A stretch of 64,000 nucleotides of DNA from Candidatus Eiseniibacteriota bacterium (GCA_005893265.1 VBOX01000085.1:5017-69016); one strand, 5' to 3'; shown: positions 296-13,719, counted from the first letter of the stretch. Program-made: numbers and translations. Notes: generated by a model from the letters alone, not told the origin.

Positions 296-1180
296 ATGCG
301 GATCGCGACCTGGAACGTGAACTCCCTGGCAGCGCGGATGGAGAGGGTCTCCTGGTGGCTCGAGCGCGCCCGGCCGGACGTGCTCCTGATGCAGGAGACG
401 AAGCTCACGGACGCGGACGCGCTGGTCGCGGCCTTCCGCGAGGCGGGCTACGAGCTGGCCCATCACGGGGAGGGCCGCTGGAACGGCGTGGCCATTGCCA
501 GCCGCGGTGGGATCGAGGCGGTCGTCACCAACTTTGGTGAGCCGCTGCGCCCCGCGGCAACCCCGGACGTCGGCGACGACGAGCCGCTGGCCGAGGCGCG
601 GATGATCGCGGCCACTTGTGAAGGCGTCCGTGTCGTGTGCGTGTATGCGCCGAACGGGAGGAAGGTCGGATCGGAGTTCTATGAAGCCAAGCTCGCCTGG
701 TACGAGCGGCTCTTGGCTTGGCTCGAGACTTCAACGGATCCGGACGAGCCTCTCGTTCTCGGCGGTGACTTCAACGTCGCCCCAGCGGACGAGGATGTCT
801 GGGATCCGAGGCTCTGTCGTGGGGGAACGCACGTGTCGCCGCGGGAGCGTGAGGCGTTCTTTCGTTTGTGCGAGTGGGGGTTGGTCGATGTCTACCGCCG
901 GCATCATCCCGAGTCCGGCCGCTTCACGTGGTGGGATTACCGCGCCGGAGACTTCCACAAGAATTTCGGGATGCGAATCGACCACCTGCTTGCGACGCGC
1001 CCGGTCGCTGAGCGGGCGGTTTGGGCGGAGATCGATCGGGAGGCCCGGAAAGGCAAGCCCACCCCCTCGGACCATGCGCCGGTCGTCATGGATATCGACC
1101 GGCCCGGTCATCCCTTAGACGCGGGTTGGGCGTCCGCCGAGGAGCGAATCGCCGCAAGGCGGGGGAAGGCGAGGTCATGA
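296..1180 (+). CDS. xthA: Exodeoxyribonuclease III (AP endonuclease)
   Basis: 294-aa ORF starting MRIATWNVNSL, with LMQETK and DHAPV motifs typical of the ExoIII/EEP family. G/C-rich codon third positions. Confidence 0.9.
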   Translation: MRIATWNVNSLAARMERVSWWLERARPDVLLMQETKLTDADALVAAFREAGYELAHHGEGRWNGVAIASRGGIEAVVTNFGEPLRPAATPDVGDDEPLAEARMIAATCEGVRVVCVYAPNGRKVGSEFYEAKLAWYERLLAWLETSTDPDEPLVLGGDFNVAPADEDVWDPRLCRGGTHVSPREREAFFRLCEWGLVDVYRRHHPESGRFTWWDYRAGDFHKNFGMRIDHLLATRPVAERAVWAEIDREARKGKPTPSDHAPVVMDIDRPGHPLDAGWASAEERIAARRGKARS

Positions 1181-1852
1181 CGCCGCCTTGTCCGACCCGG
1201 AGCGCTTGCGCAGGTAGACATGCGTGGCGCGCTCGCCCGCCACGGACTTCCAGCATTCGTAGGCCAGCGCGCGCATGTCGATGTCGTGCAGGAGATGCTC
1301 GCCGGTGCCCAGCACGACCGGCCGGATCGCGAGGATCAGCTCGTCGACAAGACCGGCGCGCAGGAACTGTCGGATCGTGAACACGCCGCCGCCCAGGCGG
1401 ACGTCGCGAGCGCCCGCGGCGGCTTTCGCCTGCTCAAGAGCCGCATGGATGCCGTTGGTGACGAAGCGGAATTCGGTGCCGCCCTTCATGGGGATCGGCG
1501 CGCGCGGATGATGCGTCAGCACGAACACCGGCGTGTGATAGGGTGGCTCGTCGCCCCACCACCCCTTCCAGTTCTCGTCCGGCCACGGGCCGCGGATCGG
1601 GCCGAACATGTTCCGCCCCAGGATCCAGGCGCCAAGCCCGGACAGGCCTTGCTCGGCGATTCCGTTGTCGATCCCGGTCTCGCCGTCGGGCAAGCCGTGC
1701 ATCGAGCGCCAAGCGCGGGTGTGGAAAAACCACTCCATCAGCTCGGGGCCGCGCACGCCGAGGGGGTTATCGATGTCCTGGCTCGGGCCGGCGCCGAACC
1801 CGTCGATAGAGATGGCGAAGCTCTGGACGCGGAGTTTAGGGTCGGCCGACAC
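1175..1852 (-). CDS. Dihydrofolate reductase-family protein (RibD C-terminal domain-like)
   Basis: 225-aa ORF with a RibD_C/YyaP-like signature (ISIDGF...GGG.L...L...GLVDEL..V.PVVLG). Its end overlaps the xthA stop on the opposite strand. Confidence 0.7.
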   Translation of the reverse strand: MSADPKLRVQSFAISIDGFGAGPSQDIDNPLGVRGPELMEWFFHTRAWRSMHGLPDGETGIDNGIAEQGLSGLGAWILGRNMFGPIRGPWPDENWKGWWGDEPPYHTPVFVLTHHPRAPIPMKGGTEFRFVTNGIHAALEQAKAAAGARDVRLGGGVFTIRQFLRAGLVDELILAIRPVVLGTGEHLLHDIDMRALAYECWKSVAGERATHVYLRKRSGSDKAAS

Positions 1853-2424
1853 TAGGATTCCGATTCGCTCGCGACCGGCTCCGCCGCCGCGGCCTTGTCC
1901 CAGTGGGTCCGATGGTGAGCGGTCAAGGGCCTCAACACCAGCAGGGCGAACTGAAGGCCGGCAATGATCAGGAGGAGAAGGAGGCCCAGAACATACGGAC
2001 CCGGCTCACGATGAAAGAGAATAGAGATTGCGTTCAGGAGCTGGAGCAGGGCTGCCACCCCGGACGACGCCCACACGACGACCGAGGCCCGAGCCGAGAG
2101 CACCCCGGGGTGCTTGAGTATGAGGTGCTGCCAGTTTGGAACCAAGTTCACGATGTACGCCACGCAGTAGCCACACAGCAGTAGACGGGCAACCGCCCAG
2201 AGGTCAGAGCCGTGAAGGTGAAGCAGTACTCCGACCGTGGGAAGAAAAGCGAACAGGCAGGCGCCGAGTGATGTGGCCAGCATGTTCGTGAGGCGGAATC
2301 GGTCCTCGAGAAACCATTCTCCGTGGGCGCGACGGCCAAAAACCGCGACGACTCCGCTGAATCCGGCGAAGGTCGCCGCGACCCCGGCGAAGCCGAGGAG
2401 GATGAGGACTGTGCGTTCATCCAT
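1852..2424 (-). CDS. Hypothetical polytopic membrane protein
   Basis: 190-aa ORF with about 6 hydrophobic segments and good codon bias. No recognisable family. Confidence 0.5.
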   Translation of the reverse strand: MDERTVLILLGFAGVAATFAGFSGVVAVFGRRAHGEWFLEDRFRLTNMLATSLGACLFAFLPTVGVLLHLHGSDLWAVARLLLCGYCVAYIVNLVPNWQHLILKHPGVLSARASVVVWASSGVAALLQLLNAISILFHREPGPYVLGLLLLLIIAGLQFALLVLRPLTAHHRTHWDKAAAAEPVASESES

Positions 2425-3194: not shown

Positions 3195-3433
3195 GACCTG
3201 GCCTCCAAGGTACGGGAAGGAATTTGCCTTATCGGCGTTACGCGACGCGGGCGGTCACCACGAAGTGTGGCGATTCGTGGTCGCCCTCATCAAGACGACG
3301 ATCGAGGAGGGCCGAAATCGACAGCGTCAACGGCAGGTGGCTCTATTGACCAAGCAGGATGGTCACGCTATCGCTCTCGAGGTTACTTGCGGCCACGTCG
3401 GGTTTGCCTGGCCACTGCTAACGCCACAGGAGA

Positions 3434-3991
3434 TTAGTCCGCCTTACCATCGATAAGGCGTCGTTGATCGCGAATGCTGTCGACGCGAGACAATTTCCAG
3501 CCCTCAGAAGTCCTCCTCCAGATCTCGCGCTGCGTGACCCATGTCTCCACGTGGTGCACCAGACCGTCATTCCGGCGCGCGATTCGATCGGCATGCTGGC
3601 GTACGACAGCACGCGCGAGGTCGCCGGAGACCTCGAGGCTGTCGATCTCGAAGGTCAGCGAAATCCAGCGGTCGATTCCATCAAGGAGCGCGCGGGTGGA
3701 CTGCTCCATCTCGGCGCGGTAGTGCAGCACGCTGTCCGCGGTCACGGCGTGAAAGTCATCTGTTCGGAGCGCCATGATGGCATTGAAATCCTTTGCGAGG
3801 AAGGCGCGTCGATTTTCGTCATACCGGTGCTGCAGCTCGCGTCGAACGGCGGCCGAATCTAGTGCGCTCAGGTGCTGTGAGGGGGGTGACTTAGCAGTAC
3901 CAGCGCAACCCATCGCGCAGAGCATGGCGATCGCCATGAGGAAACGCATCGCGAGCACTATGCACCTGGGAAGTCTGGTCATGCAGGGCAC
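3434..3991 (-). CDS. Lipoprotein with NTF2-like (SnoaL/DUF4440-like) fold
   Basis: Signal peptide with a lipobox (LCAMGCAG). The true start is probably the internal Met near 3949 (MRFLMAIAML). The C-terminal W..E.W motif is typical of the NTF2-like superfamily. Confidence 0.5.
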   Translation of the reverse strand: MPCMTRLPRCIVLAMRFLMAIAMLCAMGCAGTAKSPPSQHLSALDSAAVRRELQHRYDENRRAFLAKDFNAIMALRTDDFHAVTADSVLHYRAEMEQSTRALLDGIDRWISLTFEIDSLEVSGDLARAVVRQHADRIARRNDGLVHHVETWVTQREIWRRTSEGWKLSRVDSIRDQRRLIDGKAD

Positions 3992-4044
3992 GAATCATAC
4001 GATCTGATCACCCACCAAGAAGATAGCAAAACGCCCTTGACAAC

Positions 4045-4058
4045 TGCACAAATGTGCA
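4045..4058. promoter_or_regulatory. Candidate LexA operator (SOS box): perfect palindrome TGCAC-AAAT-GTGCA
   Basis: The perfect 14-bp palindrome TGCACAAATGTGCA lies 15 bp upstream of the lexA ATG. From memory it fits the TGCNC-N4-GTGCA LexA-box class reported for Fibrobacteres. No second copy was found by eye elsewhere in the window. Confidence 0.55.
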
Positions 4059-4072
4059 CTATCCTATGTGTC

Positions 4073-4813
4073 ATGAGCAAGCCCAATCCGCCCAAGACGC
4101 CGGGGGGTGCCCGGAAGCGCAAGCCCAAGCGATTTGCCGCGATCGACGTGGGGGCCGATCGCGAGCAGGCGGTCCTGGACATGATTGCGGGGTCGCTTCG
4201 CGAGCAGGGACGGCCGCCCACGATCCGAGAAATCGGGGAGGCCTTCGGGATCGCCTCGACCAACGGGGTCCGCTACTACCTGGACCGCCTCGAGCGGGCG
4301 GGGAAGATCCACCGGGATCGCTGGACCTCGCGTGGGATCGGGCTCAAGGCGATTCCGGGAGGCGCCGCCGCGAGAGCATCCATCCCCGCGGTCCGCCCCA
4401 TTCCCGAGCACTCCACGCCACGCAACGCGATCGAAATTCCATTGCTGGGCCGCGTGGCCGCCGGCGCGCCGATTCTCGCCGAGGAAAATGTGGAGGACGT
4501 GCTCATCGTAGACGGCGCGTTCGTGCGGCCCGGCAAGCATTTCGCTCTCCGCGTGCGTGGGGACAGCATGAAGAACGCGGGGATCCTGGACGGCGACATC
4601 GCGATCGTGCACCACGACGCGCCGGTCAAGAGCGGAGAGATCGCGGTCGTGGTGATCGGCGAAGAGGCGACGGTGAAGCGCTTCTTCCCGCGTCGCGACA
4701 AGCTCCTCCTGATTCCCGAGAACGAGGACTACGAGCCGATCGAGGTGCGCCCGTCCGATCCCGATGTTCGGGTCGCGGGCAAGGTGGTGGGGGTTTTCCG
4801 GAGGCTTGGCTGA
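4073..4813 (+). CDS. lexA: LexA repressor (SOS regulator)
   Basis: An N-terminal wHTH (REIGEAFGIASTNGVRYYLDRLERAG) is followed by a linker and an S24 peptidase domain with catalytic Ser in the RVRGDSM motif and a Lys (KRF). The start is set at MSKPNPPK; the ORF-track start at 4037 would overlap the operator. Confidence 0.9.
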   Translation: MSKPNPPKTPGGARKRKPKRFAAIDVGADREQAVLDMIAGSLREQGRPPTIREIGEAFGIASTNGVRYYLDRLERAGKIHRDRWTSRGIGLKAIPGGAAARASIPAVRPIPEHSTPRNAIEIPLLGRVAAGAPILAEENVEDVLIVDGAFVRPGKHFALRVRGDSMKNAGILDGDIAIVHHDAPVKSGEIAVVVIGEEATVKRFFPRRDKLLLIPENEDYEPIEVRPSDPDVRVAGKVVGVFRRLG

Positions 4814-4815
4814 TG
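4799..4815 (+). repeat. 17-bp direct repeat copy 1 (CGGAGGCTTGGCTGATG), spanning the lexA stop and the next gene's start
   Basis: Exact 17-mer found again at 5232-5248. Contains a GGAGG RBS and ends in ATG. Confidence 0.8.
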
Positions 4816-5199
4816 ACACAGAGTCCAGTCGATACGGTCCGCCGGCTCGTCGCGGCGATCAACGCGGGTAACCTGGACGCCGCGGTCGCTCTCTACGAGC
4901 CTTCGGGAGTTCTCCTTTCCCCGGAGGGCGCCCCGGCCCGCGGTACGGCCGAGCTTCGCGCCGCGCTCGGAGGATTCATCGCGATGAAACCCAGGCTCGA
5001 GTCTCAGGCGGAGCGCGTCTTCGAATCGGGGGATCTCGCGCTCTACCTGAGTCGGTGGAGTCTCCACGGAACGGATCCCGGCGGGAAGCCGATCGCGCTC
5101 GCCGGGGAATCCACCGACGTGCTGCGGCGCCAGGCGGGCGGGAACTGGCTCATCGCGATCGACAATCCCTGGGGAGTGAAGACGCTGCCGCCCGCGTAG
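4813..5199 (+). CDS. NTF2-like / SnoaL-like (ketosteroid isomerase-like, DUF4440-type) protein
   Basis: 129-aa ORF whose ATG overlaps the lexA TGA (ATGA). Its pattern (VRRLVAAINAGNLDAAVALYEP...G....G) is typical of the NTF2-like superfamily. Confidence 0.6.
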   Translation: MTQSPVDTVRRLVAAINAGNLDAAVALYEPSGVLLSPEGAPARGTAELRAALGGFIAMKPRLESQAERVFESGDLALYLSRWSLHGTDPGGKPIALAGESTDVLRRQAGGNWLIAIDNPWGVKTLPPA

Positions 5200-5231
5200 G
5201 GAGGCTGACCGGGTTACTCGGGCTGGCATAT

Positions 5232-5248
5232 CGGAGGCTTGGCTGATG
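5232..5248 (+). repeat. 17-bp direct repeat copy 2 (CGGAGGCTTGGCTGATG)
   Basis: Identical to 4799-4815. Supplies the RBS and ATG of the small ORF at 5246. Confidence 0.8.
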
Positions 5249-5542
5249 GTCCATGCGAACTCATTTCCCAAGGCAAGCGACGGTTACTTCATGATCGAGT
5301 CGATCCACGATCCCATCGAAGTCATCACGATGTTCGGAAACGGAAAGATGCGCCCCATCCGATTCCGCTGGAAGAACAAGATCGTGAAGGTGGCCAAGGT
5401 GACGGGTGATTGGGTCCGCCACGAGGGGCAGAACAAGATCCACTACTTCGCGCTCCTGGCGGACAGCTCGGATTATTACGAGATCTGCTACAACGCGAAG
5501 GATATGACCTGGCAGCTCACCCGCGTCTGGATGGAAGGGTGA
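5246..5542 (+). CDS. Small uncharacterised protein (98 aa), AT-richer than its surroundings, immediately upstream of dinB
   Basis: An intact ORF with RBS+ATG supplied by the repeated 17-mer. It ends 6 nt before the dinB GTG start. Its composition is visibly less GC-rich than flanking genes. No family recognised. Confidence 0.45.
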   Translation: MVHANSFPKASDGYFMIESIHDPIEVITMFGNGKMRPIRFRWKNKIVKVAKVTGDWVRHEGQNKIHYFALLADSSDYYEICYNAKDMTWQLTRVWMEG

Positions 5543-5548
5543 CAGGCG

Positions 5549-6745
5549 GTGCGGGTCGTGCTGCACCTCGACATGGACTCGTTTTTCGCCTCGGTCGAAG
5601 AGAAGCTGAACCCGCGCCTCAAGGGGAAGCCGATCCTCGTCGGTGGCACGGAGCGGCGCGGTGTCGTCGCCTCGGCGAACTACGCGGCGCGCCCGTTCGG
5701 GATTCACGCCGGGATGCCCATGGCGGAGGCAAGGCGGCTCTGCCCGCACGCGGTCTTCGTCGAGGGTAATCCCCAGAAGTACGTCCACACGTCGCTTCAA
5801 TTCCTCGACGTATTGAAGAGCTTCACCCCCGCGGTGGAGCCGTTTAGCATCGATGAGGCGTTCCTCGATCTCACCCAGGTGCCTTATCCAGGCCGCCCCT
5901 CTCCCGAGGAACGCGACCCGGCGGTGATCCTCGACTCCGCGATCCCGGTCGCCCACGCGATCCAGCGCGCGGTCCAGCGACGCGTCGGGCTCACCGCCAC
6001 GATCGGGATCGCGCCCAACAAATACATCGCGAAGATGGCGAGCGGGGTGCAGAAGCCCCGGGGGCTCACAGTGTTGACCCTCGAGCGCTACCGTGAGCGG
6101 TTTTGGGAACGTGGGGTCCAAGAATTATGGGGGATCGGCGAAAAGACGAAGGAAGCGCTCGCCAAGCTCGGCATACGCACGATCGGACAGCTCGCGAAGT
6201 TTCCGCGTGAGTTCCTCACCTACCATTTCGGATTGAACGGCGAGCGGATGCAGGAGGCTGCGCTGGGACGCGACGAGAACCCGGTCATTCCGTACTACGA
6301 AGGGGTGCCAGTAAAATCGATGGGGCACGAGATCACGCTTTCGGAGGACGTCTCGGACAAAGAGGCGCTCAAGGCGCAACTGCTGCGTCTAAGCGACATG
6401 GTAGGCCGGCGGCTCCGCGCGGACGGCTACCTGGGAAGAATCATTTCCGTGAAGATCCGCGACTCGAAATTCCGTACCACGATCCGCCAGCGCGCGCTCC
6501 CGGAGGTTGTGGACGATGAGCACGAGATTTTCCACACGGCCGCATTGCTCCTCGAGGAGCATTGGGACGGGAGGCCTCTGCGGTTGATCGGAGTTTCCGT
6601 CTCGGGGCTGGTTTCCGCAGCGGGACACTACCAGCACAGCCTCTTCGGCCAGGATGAGCATCGTAGGAAGTTGCTCGAGGCGGTGGATTCGTTGAGAGAT
6701 CGCTTTGGGGAGACCTCGTTGGTGAAAGCTGGGGTGTTGCGGTGA
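5549..6745 (+). CDS. dinB: DNA polymerase IV (Y-family translesion polymerase)
   Basis: Starts VRVVLHLDMDSFFASVE (Y-family catalytic DMD motif), with a little-finger domain C-terminally. Length 398 aa; the start codon is GTG. Confidence 0.9.
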   Translation: MRVVLHLDMDSFFASVEEKLNPRLKGKPILVGGTERRGVVASANYAARPFGIHAGMPMAEARRLCPHAVFVEGNPQKYVHTSLQFLDVLKSFTPAVEPFSIDEAFLDLTQVPYPGRPSPEERDPAVILDSAIPVAHAIQRAVQRRVGLTATIGIAPNKYIAKMASGVQKPRGLTVLTLERYRERFWERGVQELWGIGEKTKEALAKLGIRTIGQLAKFPREFLTYHFGLNGERMQEAALGRDENPVIPYYEGVPVKSMGHEITLSEDVSDKEALKAQLLRLSDMVGRRLRADGYLGRIISVKIRDSKFRTTIRQRALPEVVDDEHEIFHTAALLLEEHWDGRPLRLIGVSVSGLVSAAGHYQHSLFGQDEHRRKLLEAVDSLRDRFGETSLVKAGVLR

Positions 6746-6782
6746 CATGCGCGTGGGTGGGCTTTACGGTTGGGACGGCGCG

Positions 6783-7643
6783 ATGATTCTCCTGGGCACT
6801 TCCGGCTACTCCTATCCTGATTGGGACGGCGTCTTCTATCCGCCGGGACTCGCTCGCGCAAAGCAGCTCGATTTCTACGTCCGCCAGTTCAAGACGGTCG
6901 AGGTCAACTCTACCTATTACCGGATCCCGCCGCCTTCGACCTTCGCCGCCATGGAGCGGAGGTCGCCGGCGGATTTCGAGTTCGTGGTGAAGGTGCACCA
7001 CGACATGACCCACGCCCAGACGCGCGACCCCGAGGCGTACGCTGCGTTCCATTCCGCCCTGGAGCCCCTGCGCCGCGCGCACAAGCTGAGCGGCGTGCTC
7101 GCGCAGTTCCCGCAGGCGTTCCACCGCTCGGAGGACCACGAGCGCTTCCTGACCGAGCTCCAGGAGCGGATGGAGGGCGCGCCGCTCTTCGTGGAGTTCC
7201 GGCACAACTCGTGGATGCACGAGGACGTGTTCGAATTCCTGGAGCGCGCGAGCCTGGGGTACGTGAGCGTGGACGAGCCTTCGCTTCCCGGGCTCCTGCC
7301 ACCGGTGGCGCGCGCGACAGGGGGGCTGGCGTATGTACGGTTCCATGGAAGGAATGCCAAGAGCTGGTACGCCGGGGACCAGGGCAAGGACTCGGACACC
7401 CCAAATGGTGCTCCCGCGCGTCCTGCCCGCGATCGCCGGCTTCTTCGCTACGACTATCTCTACTCCGAGGCGGAGCTCAAGGAATGGGCGGACAAGATTC
7501 GCGAGCTGAACCAGAAGACGCAGAAGACATTCGTCTTCTTCAACAACTGCCACGCGGGGCAGGCCGCGACAAGCGCCAAGCTCATGCGAAAGCTCCTCGA
7601 TATGCCGGAGCCCAGTTTCGCCGAGCAGACTGGATTGTTGTGA
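6783..7643 (+). CDS. DUF72 (YecE-like) family protein
   Basis: LLGTSGYSYPDW..FYP ... YVRFHGRN...WY...YDYLYSEAELKEW are signature DUF72 motifs. The ORF could begin at 6747, overlapping the dinB stop; the internal Met at 6783 is preferred. Confidence 0.75.
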   Translation: MILLGTSGYSYPDWDGVFYPPGLARAKQLDFYVRQFKTVEVNSTYYRIPPPSTFAAMERRSPADFEFVVKVHHDMTHAQTRDPEAYAAFHSALEPLRRAHKLSGVLAQFPQAFHRSEDHERFLTELQERMEGAPLFVEFRHNSWMHEDVFEFLERASLGYVSVDEPSLPGLLPPVARATGGLAYVRFHGRNAKSWYAGDQGKDSDTPNGAPARPARDRRLLRYDYLYSEAELKEWADKIRELNQKTQKTFVFFNNCHAGQAATSAKLMRKLLDMPEPSFAEQTGLL

Positions 7644-7691
7644 TCATGGCTCAGCTGCCTCCTCATCACCACCCCGTGACAAGGTGTTTCC

Positions 7692-8912
7692 ATGCAGAAC
7701 TACGCGCTGACCCATGTTGGTGATGAAGTCCTCCTTCGCGATCTGGCGGCGATTGTGGTTCGAGATCGCGCCACCACGGCGACCCTCTTGGCCTGTATCG
7801 CCGAGGTCGACGCCCGCCGGTTGTATGTCCCGGCGGGCTACTCATCCATGCATGCCTATTGCGTGGGCGAGCTACGCCTGTCAGAGGATGCGGCAAAGAA
7901 ACGCATTCAGGCGGCTCGGGCGGCTCGGCAATTCCCGGCCATCTTCCATGCTATCGCTGAAGGCAGACTTCATTTGACTGGGGTCTGCCTGCTTGCGCCG
8001 TATCTCACGACGGAAAACGCGAGGGGATTGATCGAGTCAGCGACCCACAAGCGCAAGACCGAAATCGAGGAGCTGCTTGCGAGGCACTTTCAGCTTCCAG
8101 ACGTGCGAGTGCGGCCCACGACACCAATTCATTCGGAGCTCCAGCTGGATGTGCCATCGCATAGCGGAGGAGATCCCGCACACGACGACAGCGCGCTCAG
8201 CCAAGGTGCGCCAGAGCACATCCCTAAATTACAAAGTGCGGTGCTACCTACTACCGCCGAGCGATTTCTCATGCAGCTCATTATTGCCAAGAGCACCCAC
8301 GACAAGCTACTGCACGCCCAAGCTTTACTGAGCCATGCCCTCCCCACCGGAGATGTTGCGCAGGTGCTCGACCGGGCGCTTGATGCTCTGATCGCACAGC
8401 TCGAGAAGCGCAAGCTCGGGGTCGTCACCCGTCGGCCTCGACGATCGACTGCAGGAAATCGCCCGGCCCCCCGGGGCCGCTACGTCCCGGCCCCTGTCCG
8501 GCGCGCCGTCTGGGAGCGGGATCGGGGTCAATGCACCTTCGTGAGCGCGAGCGGGACCCGCTGCACGGCACGCCGCTTCCTGGAATTCGACCATGTCGAC
8601 CCCGTGGCGCTAGGGGGACAGGCGTCCGTAGATCGAATGCGGCTGCGATGCCGCGCCCATAACCAGTACGAAGCCGAGCGGGTGTTCGGCGCGCGTTTCA
8701 TGAGACGAAAGCGACACGATGCACGGCTCGCGGCGGCAGAAGGAAGCGCGCGGCCCTCCAAAGAGCACACCGAGGCCGTGTTGGCCGGCCTACGCGTCCT
8801 CGGATGTAAGGCCAACGAGGCGCGCCGTGCGGTTGCGTTATCGGAAACCATCCCAGGCACCACGCTCGAGGAGCGCATGCGGCTCGCTCTCAAATCTCTC
8901 CGACCAGGGTGA
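7692..8912 (+). CDS. HNH endonuclease of the DUF222 (13E12-like) family with a RuvA-C-like tail
   Basis: An N-terminal DUF222-like region is followed by an HNH motif (C..C....FLEFDHVDP....G......L.C..HN). The C-terminal segment (EAVLAGLRVLGCKANEARRAV) resembles RuvA domain III. The 5' third of the gene is visibly AT-richer. Confidence 0.7.
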   Translation: MQNYALTHVGDEVLLRDLAAIVVRDRATTATLLACIAEVDARRLYVPAGYSSMHAYCVGELRLSEDAAKKRIQAARAARQFPAIFHAIAEGRLHLTGVCLLAPYLTTENARGLIESATHKRKTEIEELLARHFQLPDVRVRPTTPIHSELQLDVPSHSGGDPAHDDSALSQGAPEHIPKLQSAVLPTTAERFLMQLIIAKSTHDKLLHAQALLSHALPTGDVAQVLDRALDALIAQLEKRKLGVVTRRPRRSTAGNRPAPRGRYVPAPVRRAVWERDRGQCTFVSASGTRCTARRFLEFDHVDPVALGGQASVDRMRLRCRAHNQYEAERVFGARFMRRKRHDARLAAAEGSARPSKEHTEAVLAGLRVLGCKANEARRAVALSETIPGTTLEERMRLALKSLRPG

Positions 8913-8919
8913 TATTCGC

Positions 8920-11337
8920 ATGAAGACCAATCCCGTACGTTCGAGCCAGCAAGTCGGCCTAGGGGATCTGCTCGAACCTCAGCCGCGGCAGGCGGCGTCA
9001 CCCGCCGTCGAGTCGATCGAGGAATTCAAGACGCTCCTTCTCTCGCTGCAAGACGCTCGCGGCCGCGGCGAGCCCGAGCTGGTGCGCGCCCAGAGCCTGC
9101 CCGCTCGCCCTGCCCGCTACGGAGAGCTGGCCGAGCCGCTGCCTCGTGCGCTCGCGCACGTCCTCGATGCGCAGGGGATCGGGCGGCTCTACTCGCACCA
9201 GGCCGAGGCGATCGATCGCGCGCGCGCGGGGAAACACGTGGTGGTCGCGACCGGCACCGCCTCGGGGAAGTCGCTCGGGTATCACATTCCCGTTCTTGAG
9301 CGGCTCCTCCTCGAGAGGGAGGCCACCGCGCTCTACCTCTTCCCCACGAAGGCGCTCGCGCAGGATCAGCTCCGGGGGCTGCATCGCTTTGCGGACGCCT
9401 CGCGCGAGCTCGCCCTTGCCCTCGCGACCGGCACGTACGACGGCGATACGCCCGCCCCGGCGCGCCGGAAGCTTCGCGAGCGCGGGAACGCCATCCTCAC
9501 GAATCCCGACATGCTCCACCAGGGAATCCTGCCTTACCACGCGCGGTGGAGCAGGTTCCTCTCGAATCTGCGCTTTGTCGTCGTCGATGAGGTGCACACC
9601 TATCGGGGCATCTTCGGGTCTCACGTCGCGAACGTGCTCCGCCGCTTGAGGCGCATCGCCCGCCATTACGGCGCCGAGCCCCAATTCCTTCTCTCCTCGG
9701 CGACCGTCCGGAATCCACAAGAGCTGGCCGAGATTTTGGTGGGAGACGATGTCCACATCGTGGACAACGACGGCTCGCCGCGGGGCCCGAAACTCTTCGT
9801 CCTCTGGAACCCGCGCACCTTCGGCCCCGATTCGCCCGAGCGGCGAAGCGCCTCCGTCGATGCGGAGCGGATCCTGGTGGCCCTCATGAAGCGCGGGGTC
9901 CAGTCCATCGTCTTCACCAAAGCGCGCGTCGTCGCCGAGCTGATCTACCGCTACGCCCGCGAGCGGCTGGAGCGTGAGTCGCGGGGCCTGGCGGATCTCT
10001 TGAGCCCCTATAGAGGCGGGTACCTGCCCGAAGAAAGACGCGCGATCGAGCGACGGTTGTTCGACGGAGAGCTGCGCGGCGTCATATCGACCAACGCGCT
10101 CGAGCTTGGGATCGACGTCGGCTCGCTCGATGCCTCCATCCTCGTGGGATTCCCGAACACGATCGCGAGCACGTGGCAACAGGCGGGGCGCTCGGGCCGA
10201 AAGCAGGCGCCTTCGCTCGCGGTCGTGGTCGCATACGAGGACCCGGTCGACCAGTACCTCATGAGGCATCCTTCCTACTTCTTCGGCCAGTCGCCGGAAA
10301 ACGCGGTCCTGGATCCCGAGAACCCCTACGTGCTTGCCTCGCAGCTCTCGTGCGCCGCCTACGAGCTTCCTTTGAGGGAGGAGGACGAAGCGGTTTTCGG
10401 TCGCCGCGCCACGGCGATCGCCGAGCTTCTCGAGGAGGAAGGCTCGTTCAAGTCGCTCGACGGGCTCCGCTACTGGTCCTCCGCGGAGTACCCGGCGGGG
10501 AAGGTGAATCTGCGAACGATCTCGGACGACACATTCACCATCCTCGACCAGACGCGCGAGAACGCGGTCCTGGGCACGGTCGATTCGATCAGCGCGCCGG
10601 AGCTGTTGTATCCAGAAGCGATCTATCTTCACGAAGGCGACACCTATTTCGTCCGCGATCTTGATTTGAAGCAAAAGATTGCCTACGTCGAGCCGCGAGG
10701 GGTGGACTACTACACACAACCCGTGCTCGACACGCACTTGAAGCTCGAGGAGACGCGCGAATCGAAGAAGCTCGGAGGCGAGACGATCGGACTCGGGCCG
10801 GCGGCGGTTTCGTGGGCGACCGTCGCGATGAAGAAGATCCGGTTCCGGAGCCTCGACGCCATCGGCTATCACCCGCTGGATCTTCCACGGCAGAAGCTGG
10901 ACACCGTGGCGCTCTGGATCCAGCCGGGAGAGGGAACGCGAAATCAGGTCAAGATCGCCGGAATGAACCCGCGCGAGGGGATGTCGGGACTTCGCAACCT
11001 TCTCATCACTATTCTTCCGCTTCACGTCATGTGCGACCGGCCCGACATCGGCGGGATCCTGGACAGTGCGAATCTTGGAGAGCCCACGATTTTCATCTAC
11101 GACCGGTATCCGGGCGGACTGGGGTACGCCGAGCGCGGGTACGCGATCATCGGGGAGCTTTTGAGCGCTTCGCTCCGGCTGGTCGAGGACTGCCCGTGCG
11201 AGCTGGGATGTCCCTCCTGTGTCGGGCTACCTGTGCTGCGCCCCGCCCAACAGCAGGACCCGGATCTTTACGGAGGCTGGCCGATCCCGAGCAAGGCGGC
11301 GACCGTAGCGCTGCTGCGGCGGATGCTCGGCCGGTGA
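8920..11337 (+). CDS. mrfA: DEXH-box helicase with C-terminal DUF1998 zinc-finger domain (MrfA/YprA-like)
   Basis: Walker A (GTASGKS), a DEVH box (VVVDEVHTY) and helicase C motifs (QQAGRSGR) are present. The C-terminal Cys cluster DCPCELGCPSCVG is typical of DUF1998. The start is set at MKTNPV (ATG 8920), in frame with the longer track ORF. Confidence 0.8.
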   Translation: MKTNPVRSSQQVGLGDLLEPQPRQAASPAVESIEEFKTLLLSLQDARGRGEPELVRAQSLPARPARYGELAEPLPRALAHVLDAQGIGRLYSHQAEAIDRARAGKHVVVATGTASGKSLGYHIPVLERLLLEREATALYLFPTKALAQDQLRGLHRFADASRELALALATGTYDGDTPAPARRKLRERGNAILTNPDMLHQGILPYHARWSRFLSNLRFVVVDEVHTYRGIFGSHVANVLRRLRRIARHYGAEPQFLLSSATVRNPQELAEILVGDDVHIVDNDGSPRGPKLFVLWNPRTFGPDSPERRSASVDAERILVALMKRGVQSIVFTKARVVAELIYRYARERLERESRGLADLLSPYRGGYLPEERRAIERRLFDGELRGVISTNALELGIDVGSLDASILVGFPNTIASTWQQAGRSGRKQAPSLAVVVAYEDPVDQYLMRHPSYFFGQSPENAVLDPENPYVLASQLSCAAYELPLREEDEAVFGRRATAIAELLEEEGSFKSLDGLRYWSSAEYPAGKVNLRTISDDTFTILDQTRENAVLGTVDSISAPELLYPEAIYLHEGDTYFVRDLDLKQKIAYVEPRGVDYYTQPVLDTHLKLEETRESKKLGGETIGLGPAAVSWATVAMKKIRFRSLDAIGYHPLDLPRQKLDTVALWIQPGEGTRNQVKIAGMNPREGMSGLRNLLITILPLHVMCDRPDIGGILDSANLGEPTIFIYDRYPGGLGYAERGYAIIGELLSASLRLVEDCPCELGCPSCVGLPVLRPAQQQDPDLYGGWPIPSKAATVALLRRMLGR

Positions 11338-12221
11338 TCTCCTCCACGCTTCGGCAACGGATCGGGGAGATGCTCCGCGGCGAGGCTGCAGCTGGTCGCG
11401 CTGGCACGACGCTTGACCCCGCCGTGCGCCGTCCGCGCGAGCAGCGGATCGTACCCACTTCGATCGAGGACATCCTTCCCGGGGGCATGTTGATCGGTCG
11501 GGAGGGAGCCGTCTTCGTTCACGAACGGCTCTACACGGAGCTGAACGAGCGCCCGACCCCTCTGCTCAAAAAGTACGAGCAGATCGGGAGGCTGCCGGAC
11601 CCCGACGAGGCTCCCGTGCCCCACACGCTCCCTGAAGCGATCGAGGCGCTGGATCCGCCCGAGCGAGGACTCTTCCGGAAGTTCGGGCATCGCCGTATGC
11701 TGTTCCTCGATATCGAGACGTGCGGGCTTCAGTCGCAGCCTGTCTTTCTCGTCGGGCTCTGTCATGTCGGGGAGAGGAATCTCGTCTTGAGGCAGCTCTT
11801 CGCCCGCGACTACGCCGAGGAGCGTTCCCTGATCGCGGAGGTGGAGCGGGTTCTGGGCGAGCACGATTTTCTCGTCACCTACAATGGGAAGACCTTCGAC
11901 CTTCCGTTCCTGCGCCACCGCGCCGTGTACCACCGGCTGCGCTTCGAGACCCGGATCCCGCACCTGGACCTTCTCTGGATGGTGAGGCGCCGATGGAAGG
12001 ATCGTCTGCCCGATTGCAGACTCAAGACGCTCGAATGGCGCGTGCTGCGACGCCTGCGAGCAGGGGACATCGACGGCTCCGAGATTCCCGGCGCCTATCA
12101 CGAGTACGTGAAGCACGGCCAGCCGCACCGGCTCCTCCCTGTGTTCCACCACAACCTGCTCGATGTGGTCGCGATGGTTGAGCTTCTTCCGAGGCTCTTC
12201 GAGCCGGAGGAGGAGAGGTGA
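11334..12221 (+). CDS. mrfB: DEDDh 3'-5' exonuclease, RNase H-like (MrfB/YprB-like)
   Basis: Exo motifs I (FLDIETCGL), II (YNGKTFDLPFL) and III (HHNLLDVVAM) are present. The in-frame GTG at 11334 overlaps the helicase TGA (GTGA coupling); the alternative ATG is at 11370. Confidence 0.65.
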   Translation: MISSTLRQRIGEMLRGEAAAGRAGTTLDPAVRRPREQRIVPTSIEDILPGGMLIGREGAVFVHERLYTELNERPTPLLKKYEQIGRLPDPDEAPVPHTLPEAIEALDPPERGLFRKFGHRRMLFLDIETCGLQSQPVFLVGLCHVGERNLVLRQLFARDYAEERSLIAEVERVLGEHDFLVTYNGKTFDLPFLRHRAVYHRLRFETRIPHLDLLWMVRRRWKDRLPDCRLKTLEWRVLRRLRAGDIDGSEIPGAYHEYVKHGQPHRLLPVFHHNLLDVVAMVELLPRLFEPEEER

Positions 12222-12676
12222 AGCAAATCCGACTAGTAATTCTTGTCCTGGTTACTCTATTCGCGGGGTGCTCGGAGCAGCGATCAGGGTCACCCGTATC
12301 GAAGGCCCCCGACTCAACTAAGGCAGGTGGTCCCGCCGAAGATTGGTTGGCAACCACTAGGAGAGAGCGCGCGCTGAGTCCGCACCCCATACCGCAGTCG
12401 GATGTCGATCGCCTCAGGAGCCTCGGTTTCAAGAACCCAATCCGAGACATCATTGCGGACCTTCAAAGACACCCGGAGGTATTGCCGTTCCAGCCTCCGA
12501 AGGGTGGGAGCCGATTCGGGTTTTACGATTCGACCCAGATTCGGATCCTAACGGACGACTGGGTATACGCATACACTGAGGACGGCCATGTTGCGCGGCC
12601 GGTTCTGTTGAGATACCGGGTCCAAGAAGGCGGTCAAATTGAATGGAAGGTCATCGCGACGGATGGCGGCGAGTAG
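12218..12676 (+). CDS. Hypothetical lipoprotein
   Basis: Signal peptide plus lipobox (LFAGCS). Starts at an ATGA overlap with the exonuclease stop. AT-richer composition. Confidence 0.45.
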   Translation: MKQIRLVILVLVTLFAGCSEQRSGSPVSKAPDSTKAGGPAEDWLATTRRERALSPHPIPQSDVDRLRSLGFKNPIRDIIADLQRHPEVLPFQPPKGGSRFGFYDSTQIRILTDDWVYAYTEDGHVARPVLLRYRVQEGGQIEWKVIATDGGE

Positions 12677-12813
12677 TTCCATGGTCGACCCTGGATAGAA
12701 CTACTTGACCTGTCGATTCCGGGAACCCTCGTTCGTCGCATAGGTAGATGCGGAGGTACTACAGACCGAAATGAGGCCCGGGCGTTGACCGATGGGCCCG
12801 TTGGGCTTGAGAG

Positions 12814-12845
12814 CCTAAGACCCTAGGACCCTAGGACCCTAAGAC
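12814..12845. repeat. Tandem octamer repeat (CCTARGAC x4: CCTAAGAC CCTAGGAC CCTAGGAC CCTAAGAC)
   Basis: Read directly from the sequence. Lies 27 bp upstream of the ATG at 12873 and just 5' of the AAGGAGGA RBS. Units contain the CCTAGG palindrome. Confidence 0.6.
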
Positions 12846-12872
12846 TTTGTATCCTGAACAAGGAGGATCACA

Positions 12873-13373
12873 ATGAAAGCAATCAACCCCTGCTTGTGGT
12901 TCGACAACCAAGCCGAAGAAGCCGCGCGTTTTTACACCTCCATTTTCAAGGATTCCAAGATTGGGACCATTACCCGCTATGGAGATTCGGCGGCAGCGGC
13001 CGCCGGAAGGCCGAAGGGATCGGTGATGACCGTGACCTTCAAGCTCGATGGCCAGGAGTTCATGGCGCTGAACGGCGGCCCGATCTTCAAGTTCTCGGAG
13101 GCGATTTCGTTGATGGTGAACTGCGAAACGCAGGAAGAGATTGACCACTTCTGGACGAAGCTTTCGGAAGGTGGAGAAGAAGGGCCGTGCGGTTGGCTCA
13201 AGGACAAATTCGGCCTTTCCTGGCAAATCGTTCCCGCGATCATGGCCGAATGGATGAAGGACAGGGATACCACCCGATCCGAGAGGGTGATGGAGGCTCT
13301 CCTCAAGATGAAGAAGCTCGACATTAACGCCTTGAAGCAAGCGTACGAGGGCGAAAAGGCCGGAGTCCGCTGA
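12873..13373 (+). CDS. VOC-superfamily protein, PhnB / 3-demethylubiquinone-9 3-methyltransferase-domain type
   Basis: MKAINPCLWFDNQAEEAARFYTSIF...V.F.L.GQ.F.ALNGGP...F.EAIS are hallmarks of the PF06983 glyoxalase-like family. A strong RBS is present. Confidence 0.75.
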   Translation: MKAINPCLWFDNQAEEAARFYTSIFKDSKIGTITRYGDSAAAAAGRPKGSVMTVTFKLDGQEFMALNGGPIFKFSEAISLMVNCETQEEIDHFWTKLSEGGEEGPCGWLKDKFGLSWQIVPAIMAEWMKDRDTTRSERVMEALLKMKKLDINALKQAYEGEKAGVR

Positions 13374-13719
13374 CGGGGACCGCCAGCCCGGCCATCTGAC
13401 GCCGTCAGCGATTCGTCGCACGGGGGCCACCCGAGAGGCGTCTAGACGAAGTCAGATGCACGCTCGCCCAACGGCACGCGGTTTGCAAAGCCGCAGTATT
13501 GTGCCGCGGCCGGTGCGCCCCTGCTTGCGTGACGAGCACGCGGATCACGACCCGCTGGATGGGTAAGCCCGTGGACGGGGTGGTCGGAGGGGGAGGTGGA
13601 CGGCGCGGTGGAACCCGGCGCCGTCGCTCCCAGGGTGTGGTGGAGGGACCGCGCCTTGAGGTGTTGGGAAGCATCGTCCGCGACGGCCCCGGTCCACGCG
13701 GGACCGAACGAAGACTGGA

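Follow-up and report, generated by a model that had tools for sequence, protein, structure and literature searches.

A putative damage-inducible MrfAB repair operon with an inserted HNH nuclease gene in Candidatus Eiseniibacteriota

Introduction

A stretch of 64,000 nucleotides (nt) from Candidatus Eiseniibacteriota bacterium (GCA_005893265.1, VBOX01000085.1:5017-69016; the entire stretch is called the window in the following) contains three consecutive genes, which encode a putative HNH nuclease, a superfamily 2 (SF2) helicase and a DEDDh exonuclease. The question raised by this locus is whether the three genes form one functional unit, possibly an anti-phage module, or whether the helicase and the exonuclease are a repair pair of the MrfA-MrfB type known from Bacillus subtilis. 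An earlier note on this DNA, made from the sequence alone, had considered both possibilities. Here we show that helicase and exonuclease resemble MrfA and MrfB, that their genes sit in an array headed by lexA, and that related loci keep this array without the HNH gene. We conclude that the locus is probably a damage-inducible MrfAB repair operon with an HNH cassette that was inserted later; the HNH gene is then neither an ancestral nor an obligatory component.

Results

Helicase and exonuclease are homologs of MrfA and MrfB

A check of the open reading frames (ORFs) agreed with the earlier note on three consecutive genes on the + strand:

7692-8912, + strand: HNH nuclease gene, 406 amino acids
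8920-11337, + strand: mrfA, MrfA/YprA-type SF2 helicase, 805 amino acids, with an MZB/DUF1998 zinc domain at 10993-11223
11334-12221, + strand: mrfB, MrfB/YprB-type DEDDh 3'-5' exonuclease, 295 amino acids, or 283 amino acids from an ATG at 11370; core at 11682-12188

The proteins from the window were compared with 80 genome loci, which were found with the helicase, and with additional loci from a scan of metagenomes; these loci are identified by L numbers. Assemblies of Candidatus Eisenbacteria gave the best matches among the genomes.

The helicase contains the Pfam domains DEAD (E=3e-30), Helicase_C (E=5.7e-11), WHD_HRQ1 (E=4.1e-12) and MZB/DUF1998 (E=1.3e-22). Its translation includes the features that had been noticed before, namely a Walker A motif (GTASGKS), a DEVH box and the C-terminal DUF1998 cysteine cluster (CPCELGCPSC). 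An alignment with YprA/MrfA from B. subtilis (6znp, E=2.5e-189, residues 45-772 on 14-734) covers almost the entire protein, and the two share the architecture of DEAD, Helicase_C, winged-helix and MZB four-cysteine domains. The exonuclease has a DnaQ-like core that matches Pfam RNase_H_2 (PF13482, E=2.2e-32). It also matches the crystallized MrfB core from B. subtilis (8un9, E=4.6e-18); all DEDDh motifs are aligned here, with DIET, YNGKTFD and HHNLLD as their counterparts in the window. The Pfam matches and the alignments with 6znp and 8un9 thus back the assignment of the two proteins as an MrfA(YprA)-MrfB(YprB) pair, which the earlier note had made.

The similarity with B. subtilis extends to the organization of the genes, which are adjacent in both cases. 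In the window they share the GTGA overlap that had been reported, with the GTG start of mrfB at 11334-11336 and the TGA stop of mrfA at 11335-11337, and are probably translationally coupled. On identical contigs some gene calls place the start of the exonuclease 36 nt downstream, at the ATG 11370. The adjacency of mrfA and mrfB is found in all loci from Eisenbacteria that reach far enough downstream. There are also differences. MrfB from B. subtilis has a C-terminal TPR domain (PMC11194089); the exonuclease from the window ends 10 residues past the core, has no Pfam match to TPR and carries an N-terminal region of ~116 residues instead. Furthermore, the pair in the window is located in an operon headed by lexA, together with genes for polymerase IV and a DUF72 protein, whereas the preprint on the B. 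subtilis proteins (10.1101/426304) does not mention LexA. By these sequence features the locus is a variant organization of the known MrfAB pair: it has no TPR domain, is under candidate LexA control, couples a DUF72 gene to mrfA and contains an inserted HNH gene.

A different arrangement, which is not present in the window, occurs in loci from Planctomycetota, Victivallales, Armatimonadota and other assemblies (L045, L048, L060, L072, L074, L078, L079, L082, L087 and L088). Here a homolog of mrfB is followed by two tandem mrfA paralogs, with 40-47% and 47-51% identity to the helicase from the window.

The helicase belongs to a repair branch and not to a defense system

An SF2 core with a DUF1998/MZB domain is also common to the YprA-family helicases of defense systems (DISARM DrmA, Druantia DruE, Dpd DpdJ/F, ARMADA, BRIGADE and TALON; PMC12458937). 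It was therefore conceivable, as suggested in the earlier note, that the three genes are an anti-phage module with a YprA-type helicase, akin to DISARM, Druantia, Dpd or ARMADA. A search with PADLOC lends some weight to this idea, since the helicase models for BrxHI, SngC, DruE, DrmA and DpdJ/F match the helicase with E values from 1e-40 to 1e-8. However, these matches are limited to the generic RecA-like core (residues ~75-445), and none of them covers the whole protein. The HNH protein and 10 neighbors gave no match with PADLOC, and the exonuclease matched a generic DEDDh model only. Unlike its defense homologs, the helicase from the window is a short protein of the repair type; it is colinear with MrfA, without the large inserted domains by which PMC12458937 distinguishes the defense helicases, and it is paired with an MrfB homolog and not with any defense partner genes. 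Because its best full-length match is MrfA and because the neighboring gene encodes an MrfB homolog, the helicase is placed by sequence in the repair branch (MrfAB/YprAB) of the classification in PMC12458937 and not in the defense branch. In addition, the surroundings with lexA and polymerase IV do not resemble a defense island, and the operon is syntenic across a phylum, apparently by vertical inheritance. Together, these results make an anti-phage function of the three genes extremely improbable. A defense system was dropped as a candidate after the PADLOC analysis of the three proteins and 10 neighbors and in view of the lexA/polymerase IV context.

The pair is part of a lexA-headed array with a candidate LexA operator

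The window has 65% G+C, and its coding frames are marked by a G+C content at third codon positions (GC3) near 0.8. Between 4.0 and 12.7 kb it contains 10 head-to-tail ORFs on the + strand; the gaps within the operon are -4 to 48 nt. The earlier note had located the three genes next to an SOS operon. An SOS-type array indeed exists, but HNH, mrfA and mrfB sit inside it, behind the following features:

4037-4065, + strand: lexA promoter TTGACA-17 nt-TATCCT, with the candidate LexA operator TGCACAAATGTGCA in the spacer (4045-4058)
4073-4813, + strand: lexA, 246 amino acids; TIGR00498 with 179 bits versus a cut-off of 111, Pfam LexA_DNA_bind and Peptidase_S24
4813-5199, + strand: SnoaL/DUF4440-like gene, 128 amino acids; gene call and Pfam domains from identical contigs
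5246-5542, + strand: DUF6504-like ORF, 98 amino acids; Pfam DUF6504 with E=4.4e-4, under the gathering score, and no NCBIfam family
5549-6745, + strand: DNA polymerase IV (DinB-type Y-family, polY); Pfam IMS, IMS_C and IMS_HHH, NF002677 with 294.6 bits versus a cut-off of 256
6747-7643, + strand: DUF72 gene (Tm1631/YecE family); Pfam DUF72 with E=1.4e-63, PDB 1vpq (TM1631) with E=3.7e-51

In a scan of 10 kb (3400-13500) the TTGACA/TATCCT site was the sole sigma-70-like promoter. The candidate operator between its -35 and -10 elements is a perfect palindrome, TGCAC-N4-GTGCA, of which the 64 kb window has one exact copy. The palindrome is kept across the phylum, also in distant Eisenbacteria loci, and is located upstream of lexA in L012, L013, L015 (with 1 mismatch), L020, L021, L022, L025 and L085, and the arrangement of promoter and palindrome is conserved in ~20 promoters from Eisenbacteria, before lexA or polY. 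Of the exact copies in 1.6 Mb of fetched loci, most precede either lexA or polY; one exact copy occurs elsewhere, in the non-Eisenbacteria locus L067. A further promoter, LexA box or strong terminator inside the operon was not found beyond chance, and terminator-like sites are at most as frequent as in shuffled sequences. Since lexA passes the NCBIfam equivalog cut-off and a conserved palindrome overlaps the promoter, the array is tentatively assigned to the LexA (SOS) regulon. This suggests that the array is a LexA-repressed operon of the SOS type, with the candidate operator placed over its promoter.

In some loci the array appears in two parts. An exact copy of the palindrome precedes polY by ~80 nt in L011 (1902), L012 (2889), L015 (4543), L017 (1720) and L037 (999). 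In L011, L012 and L015, where it is a second copy, unrelated genes on the minus strand are located between the DUF6504-like gene and polY and cut off lexA; the contigs of L017 and L037 end before lexA.

The position of a Y-family polymerase behind lexA and an operator that overlaps the promoter are reminiscent of the LexA-regulated translesion cassettes, such as lexA-linked dinB or imuA-imuB-dnaE2. Unlike those cassettes, the array in the window continues into DUF72-mrfA-mrfB, which places an excision-type pair in the same unit.

The HNH gene is absent from 12 related operons

Eisenbacteria have a recurrent gene order of polymerase IV, DUF72, mrfA and mrfB, usually with lexA and the DUF6504-like gene in front. 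In 12 of these loci (L012, L013, L015, L016, L017, L018, L021, L025, L026, L028, L037 and L085) the series DUF72-mrfA-mrfB occurs without HNH, and in four of them (L016, L025, L037 and L085) the stop codon of DUF72 overlaps the GTG start of mrfA in a GTGA. One of the 12, L021, has a different insert of ~2.7 kb (4325-7001) at the DUF72|mrfA junction. An HNH gene at this junction was found only in the species of the window and its nearest relatives, the mrfA genes of which are 81-88% identical. The loci with HNH in the operon are L010, L011, L091, L121, L146, L159 and L164, together with the partial contigs L098, L108 and L144. When the loci are sorted by mrfA identity, all with at least 81% contain HNH and all with 74% or less are without it. 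The presence and absence of the gene hence follows the host phylogeny, and it therefore fits one ancestral insertion.

These data are at variance with a three-gene nuclease-helicase-exonuclease unit, as 12 syntenic loci do without HNH and its family mostly resides elsewhere. The survey of the triplet found HNH missing where mrfA-mrfB is conserved, which is the outcome that the earlier note itself had set against its proposal; the damage induction that it had named along with this outcome is presumptive.

The operon junctions gather unrelated inserts, which we labeled provisionally from reading the translations. L011 has a gene for a zinc-ribbon/HTH antitoxin-like protein and a small toxin-like ORF (1080-1855, minus strand); L012 (1198-3009) and L015 (2403-4547) contain an inserted HAD-type hydrolase gene and other genes; the insert between DUF72 and mrfA in L021 (4325-7001) encodes a protein with a signal peptide.

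Three of the loci with a typical Eisenbacteria operon and a helicase of 71-74% identity, L012, L016 and L017, are titled Limnocylindrales, Hyphomicrobiales and Omnitrophota, respectively; errors in binning are a likelier reason than a true distribution.

The HNH protein is a putative nuclease with an intact motif and without a DUF222 match

The HNH protein was divided into domains according to the AlphaFold2 model. An N-terminal helical domain (residues 11-133, 7722-8090), with a predicted local distance difference test (pLDDT) score above 90, is followed by a disordered linker (137-200), the HNH core (263-335, 8478-8696) and a tail that resembles domain III of RuvA (355-403, 8754-8900). The helical domain has no match to a Pfam family. 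The earlier note had labeled the protein as a DUF222/HNH nuclease, and this label holds in part only. We dropped DUF222 (PF02720), which has no match at E up to 10 in the protein from the window and none in 58 relatives (0/58) and 7 divergent relatives (0/7), that is in 65 family members in total. The HNH part, on the other hand, is well founded. The beta-beta-alpha-metal motif is intact (C281, C291, D300-H301, C320, H323-N324); C281, D300, H301, C320, H323 and N324 are invariant across the family, and C291 is present in at least 90% of the members. Foldseek matched the predicted structure of the core to the HNH domains of McrA, Gme HNH and Cas9. The protein from the window is sub-threshold for HNH_5 (E=0.063), PF01844 is detected in 15/58 relatives, and a profile of the family found nothing under E=0.86 among the PDB sequences.

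The resemblance of the tail to RuvA domain III, which had been noticed before, is supported; the tail is a C-terminal domain of three helices. RuvA_C (PF07499) matches the tail of the window protein below the gathering score (E=0.011), and 10 of the 58 relatives reach E values of 0.01 or less, with 6.9e-6 as the best. In the Foldseek comparison the tail matches RuvA domain III with a probability of 0.97-0.98, a target-normalized TM-score of 0.69-0.71 and 30-38% identity over 46-47 residues.

The operon copy belongs to a large family of free-standing HNH genes

A search at E<=0.001 returned more than 3,840 homologs of the HNH protein, most of them full-length and with 55-70% identity. On long contigs the members of this family have unrelated neighborhoods and are mostly free-standing; in 29 of 80 metagenome loci at least 1.2 kb are available on each side of the HNH gene, and neither DUF72 nor mrfA is present. 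No second HNH copy was found in the 64 kb window. The assembly GCA_041484545.1 contains two copies with 53% identity, one in the operon (L010) and one next to efp, the gene for elongation factor P (L170). The window copy shares 70% identity with L170 at efp and 54% with L010 in the operon. Over the conserved columns, its identity is 68-75% to free-standing members, 69-71% to operon copies with a tail and 58-62% to operon copies without a tail. The operon copies were monophyletic in 0/200 neighbor-joining bootstraps, and the internal branches are short. Sequence and context mark the HNH gene as one copy of an Eisenbacterial cassette of leader and ORF, which occurs in multiple copies and is normally free-standing.

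The site beside efp is a recurrent slot for HNH in different Eisenbacteria genomes, in which the other neighbors are unchanged. The gene has the same direction as efp in L007 and L171 and is convergent with it in L009 and L170.

The origin of the family was also addressed by base composition and by searches in mobile elements. The HNH gene is AT-richer in its 5' half (G+C content 0.594 versus 0.670), as the earlier note had stated, and the GC3 of the gene is 0.68 versus 0.81-0.84 in its neighbors. The horizontal acquisition that was read from this did not stand, insofar as a recent transfer of the window copy is concerned. HNH genes have a GC3 of 0.64-0.75, be they in the operon or free-standing, versus 0.71-0.89 in their neighbors. 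The deficit is clear at 8/9 loci; in L008 one neighbor has an equally low value. Low GC3 is therefore largely a trait of the family and does not mark a recent transfer of the window copy, and this candidate was dropped. An origin from phages or plasmids was likewise dropped after searches in phages, plasmids and viral contigs: tblastn with HNH gave no match in 50,697 phage records, plasmids gave matches to the HNH core only, in two Deinococcus plasmids, and no relative was confirmed in the viral contigs of IMG/VR.

The family can be compared with 13E12 (REP13E12) from Mycobacterium tuberculosis. Proteins of the 13E12 type have a DUF222-HNH architecture. Both families are multi-copy and chromosomal, combine an N-terminal helical region with a C-terminal HNH domain and occur in scattered contexts. 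In contrast to 13E12, the Eisenbacterial family is without Pfam DUF222 in the 65 members scanned, has the RuvA domain III-like tail and possesses a conserved leader of its own (~270 nt), which has no match to a LexA box. Most members of 13E12 in M. tuberculosis are directly controlled by LexA or damage-inducible (PMC3381160); among the Eisenbacterial HNH genes, one copy lies inside a LexA-headed operon.

Free-standing HNH genes have a conserved leader, which is mostly absent from the window

About 40 free-standing members share this non-coding leader, which ends at the start codon. The remnant in the window and examples of the complete leader are:

7667-7691, + strand: remnant of the HNH-family leader with a likely ribosome-binding site, CCCCGTGACAAGGTGTTTCC, followed by ATG; a match to the leader's 3' terminus
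L007 7725-8003, L008 7725-8003, L009 7725-8003, L170 120-400 and L171 5720-6003: complete leaders

Close to its 5' edge the leader contains TTGAC, which is invariant; it also has C-rich tracts and, ~85 nt before the ATG, an extended -10-like element (CGTGGTAyAAG). A hairpin, GCCTGG-N8-CCAGGC, is paired in 94% of the alignment cells, and 3/6 of its pairs are changed on both sides; its covariation score was reached by 0/500 shuffles. RNAalifold found no consensus structure for the whole leader alignment with 325 columns; the 3' hairpin alone is supported. Rfam gave no match, neither with its gathering scores nor with E values up to 1. The leader is a candidate for a promoter with a regulatory 5' untranslated region, or for the end of an element.

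Only the last ~25 nt of this leader (7667-7691) are present in the window, and the remainder is absent from the whole window. The operon copy has lost its control region and must therefore rely on the operon transcript.

Two alternative roles of the HNH gene

One alternative is that HNH was recruited in the subclade as a third component, for an SOS-induced incision or the processing of branched intermediates before MrfA unwinds and MrfB degrades the strand; the RuvA domain III-like tail could possibly dock on RuvB, and the resemblance of this tail to RuvA speaks for such a role. The idea is also in line with the fact that the gene is translationally packed against mrfA and that its catalytic motif is intact in all loci of the subclade that cover the junction. 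It would moreover fill a gap, since the enzyme that makes the incision for MrfAB is unknown and the pathway in B. subtilis is independent of UvrABC (10.1101/426304). However, the gene is missing from the 12 loci that keep DUF72-mrfA-mrfB, the tail is lost in 6 operon copies, and most members of the family are far from mrfA. The operon copies also form no co-evolving clade, and the partner that is conserved across most Eisenbacteria loci is DUF72 and not HNH. Recruitment of HNH as a third component is hence unlikely.

A second alternative is that HNH is a free-standing homing endonuclease, which has the DUF72|mrfA junction as its target and entered this site more than once. It would explain why the HNH copies at the junction are not monophyletic and only 58-71% identical to the window copy over conserved columns, and why some related lineages have the gene and others do not; the slot adjacent to efp is also repeatedly occupied, in both orientations. 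Against this explanation, the distribution tracks the host phylogeny cleanly, with mrfA identities of at least 81% versus 74% or less, and no conserved flanking target or element ends were found beyond the leader. The searches in phage and viral collections found no relatives, and gene conversion between paralogs explains the discordant tree equally well. Repeated homing into this junction is thus very unlikely.

Discussion

The data are best explained by a damage-inducible MrfAB repair operon into which an HNH cassette was inserted. In this operon LexA would repress the single promoter, and DNA damage would release it by the RecA-stimulated self-cleavage of LexA. The cell would then jointly produce polymerase IV for translesion synthesis, the DUF72 protein, an MrfA-like 3'-5' helicase and an MrfB-like 3'-5' DEDDh exonuclease. 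In B. subtilis, MrfAB removes the lesion-bearing strand independently of UvrABC (10.1101/426304; PMC7797055; PMC11194089). By analogy, the helicase in the window would unwind the strand with the lesion and the exonuclease would degrade it, without UvrABC. The ancestor of one subclade would have received the HNH cassette between DUF72 and mrfA, and only the last ~25 nt of the cassette's leader would have been kept. HNH would now be read from the operon transcript, and the nuclease would presumably be produced only under SOS conditions. Within the operon HNH may be merely tolerated, selfish or recruited. That the captured HNH acts as a damage-induced endonuclease with DUF72, MrfA and MrfB, supplying an incision or the cleavage of branches, with the tail recruiting it to RuvB, is a doubtful proposal.

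Several points weigh against this interpretation. The first concerns regulation: while domain identities, synteny, the distribution of HNH, the conservation of the operator and the paralogy are seen directly in the data, we infer LexA binding, damage induction and co-transcription from sequence, and also the biochemical activities and the sequence of events in evolution. A similar LexA box, TGCNC-N4-GTGCA, is reportedly used by Fibrobacter, which belongs to the same superphylum; the likeness is a lead only, since the motif was not found in the literature searched. The second point concerns the insertion. Because the internal branches are short and the identities are close, the tree does not clearly tell one insertion followed by unequal rates from re-insertion or gene conversion. 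The view that L010 and L170 are copies from one genome depends on metagenome binning. Finally, the HNH gene is kept intact and tight against mrfA, with a 7-nt gap in the window, an ATGA overlap in L010 and an 11-nt overlap in L011; this packing could mean that it has acquired a function together with MrfAB.

The coupling of DUF72 and mrfA is a more suggestive association at this locus than the presence of HNH. The DUF72 protein from the window is a clear member of the Tm1631/YecE family, for which an endonuclease IV-like DNA binding was predicted computationally (PMC3828134). Its gene adjoins mrfA across most Eisenbacteria loci and overlaps the mrfA start in four loci without HNH, which makes DUF72 a candidate for a nuclease that works with MrfAB; the coupling found here is one of genomic context alone. 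It provides genomic-context support on two questions: what DUF72 proteins do, and which nuclease incises in the UvrABC-independent MrfAB pathway.

In a wider sense, the locus suggests that MrfAB is wired into the LexA regulon across an uncultured phylum, alongside a translesion polymerase and coupled to DUF72. The idea of a three-part nuclease-helicase-exonuclease module or a defense module can be set aside. The analysis also uncovered a large unannotated HNH family, with more than 3,800 members, an N-terminal domain without a Pfam family, a RuvA-like tail and a conserved structured leader.

Other genes of the array

Of all genes in the array, the DUF6504-like ORF immediately behind lexA is conserved best, with 96-98% identity in L011, L121 and L159; in the same three loci lexA is 80-96% and mrfA 81-84% identical to the window. 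The SnoaL/DUF4440-like gene is a variable member, which only some relatives carry. The end of the array and the next gene are:

12218-12676, + strand: orf152, 152 amino acids; the GTG start overlaps the stop of mrfB, GC3 0.63
12873-13373, + strand: PhnB-like gene

Scans of Pfam and NCBIfam with orf152 gave no family match. The ORF is limited to contigs of the same species and was called on 2/6 of them, and it may not be a real gene. The PhnB-like gene follows after a gap of ~200 nt. Contigs that are identical to the window are present in several soil metagenomes.

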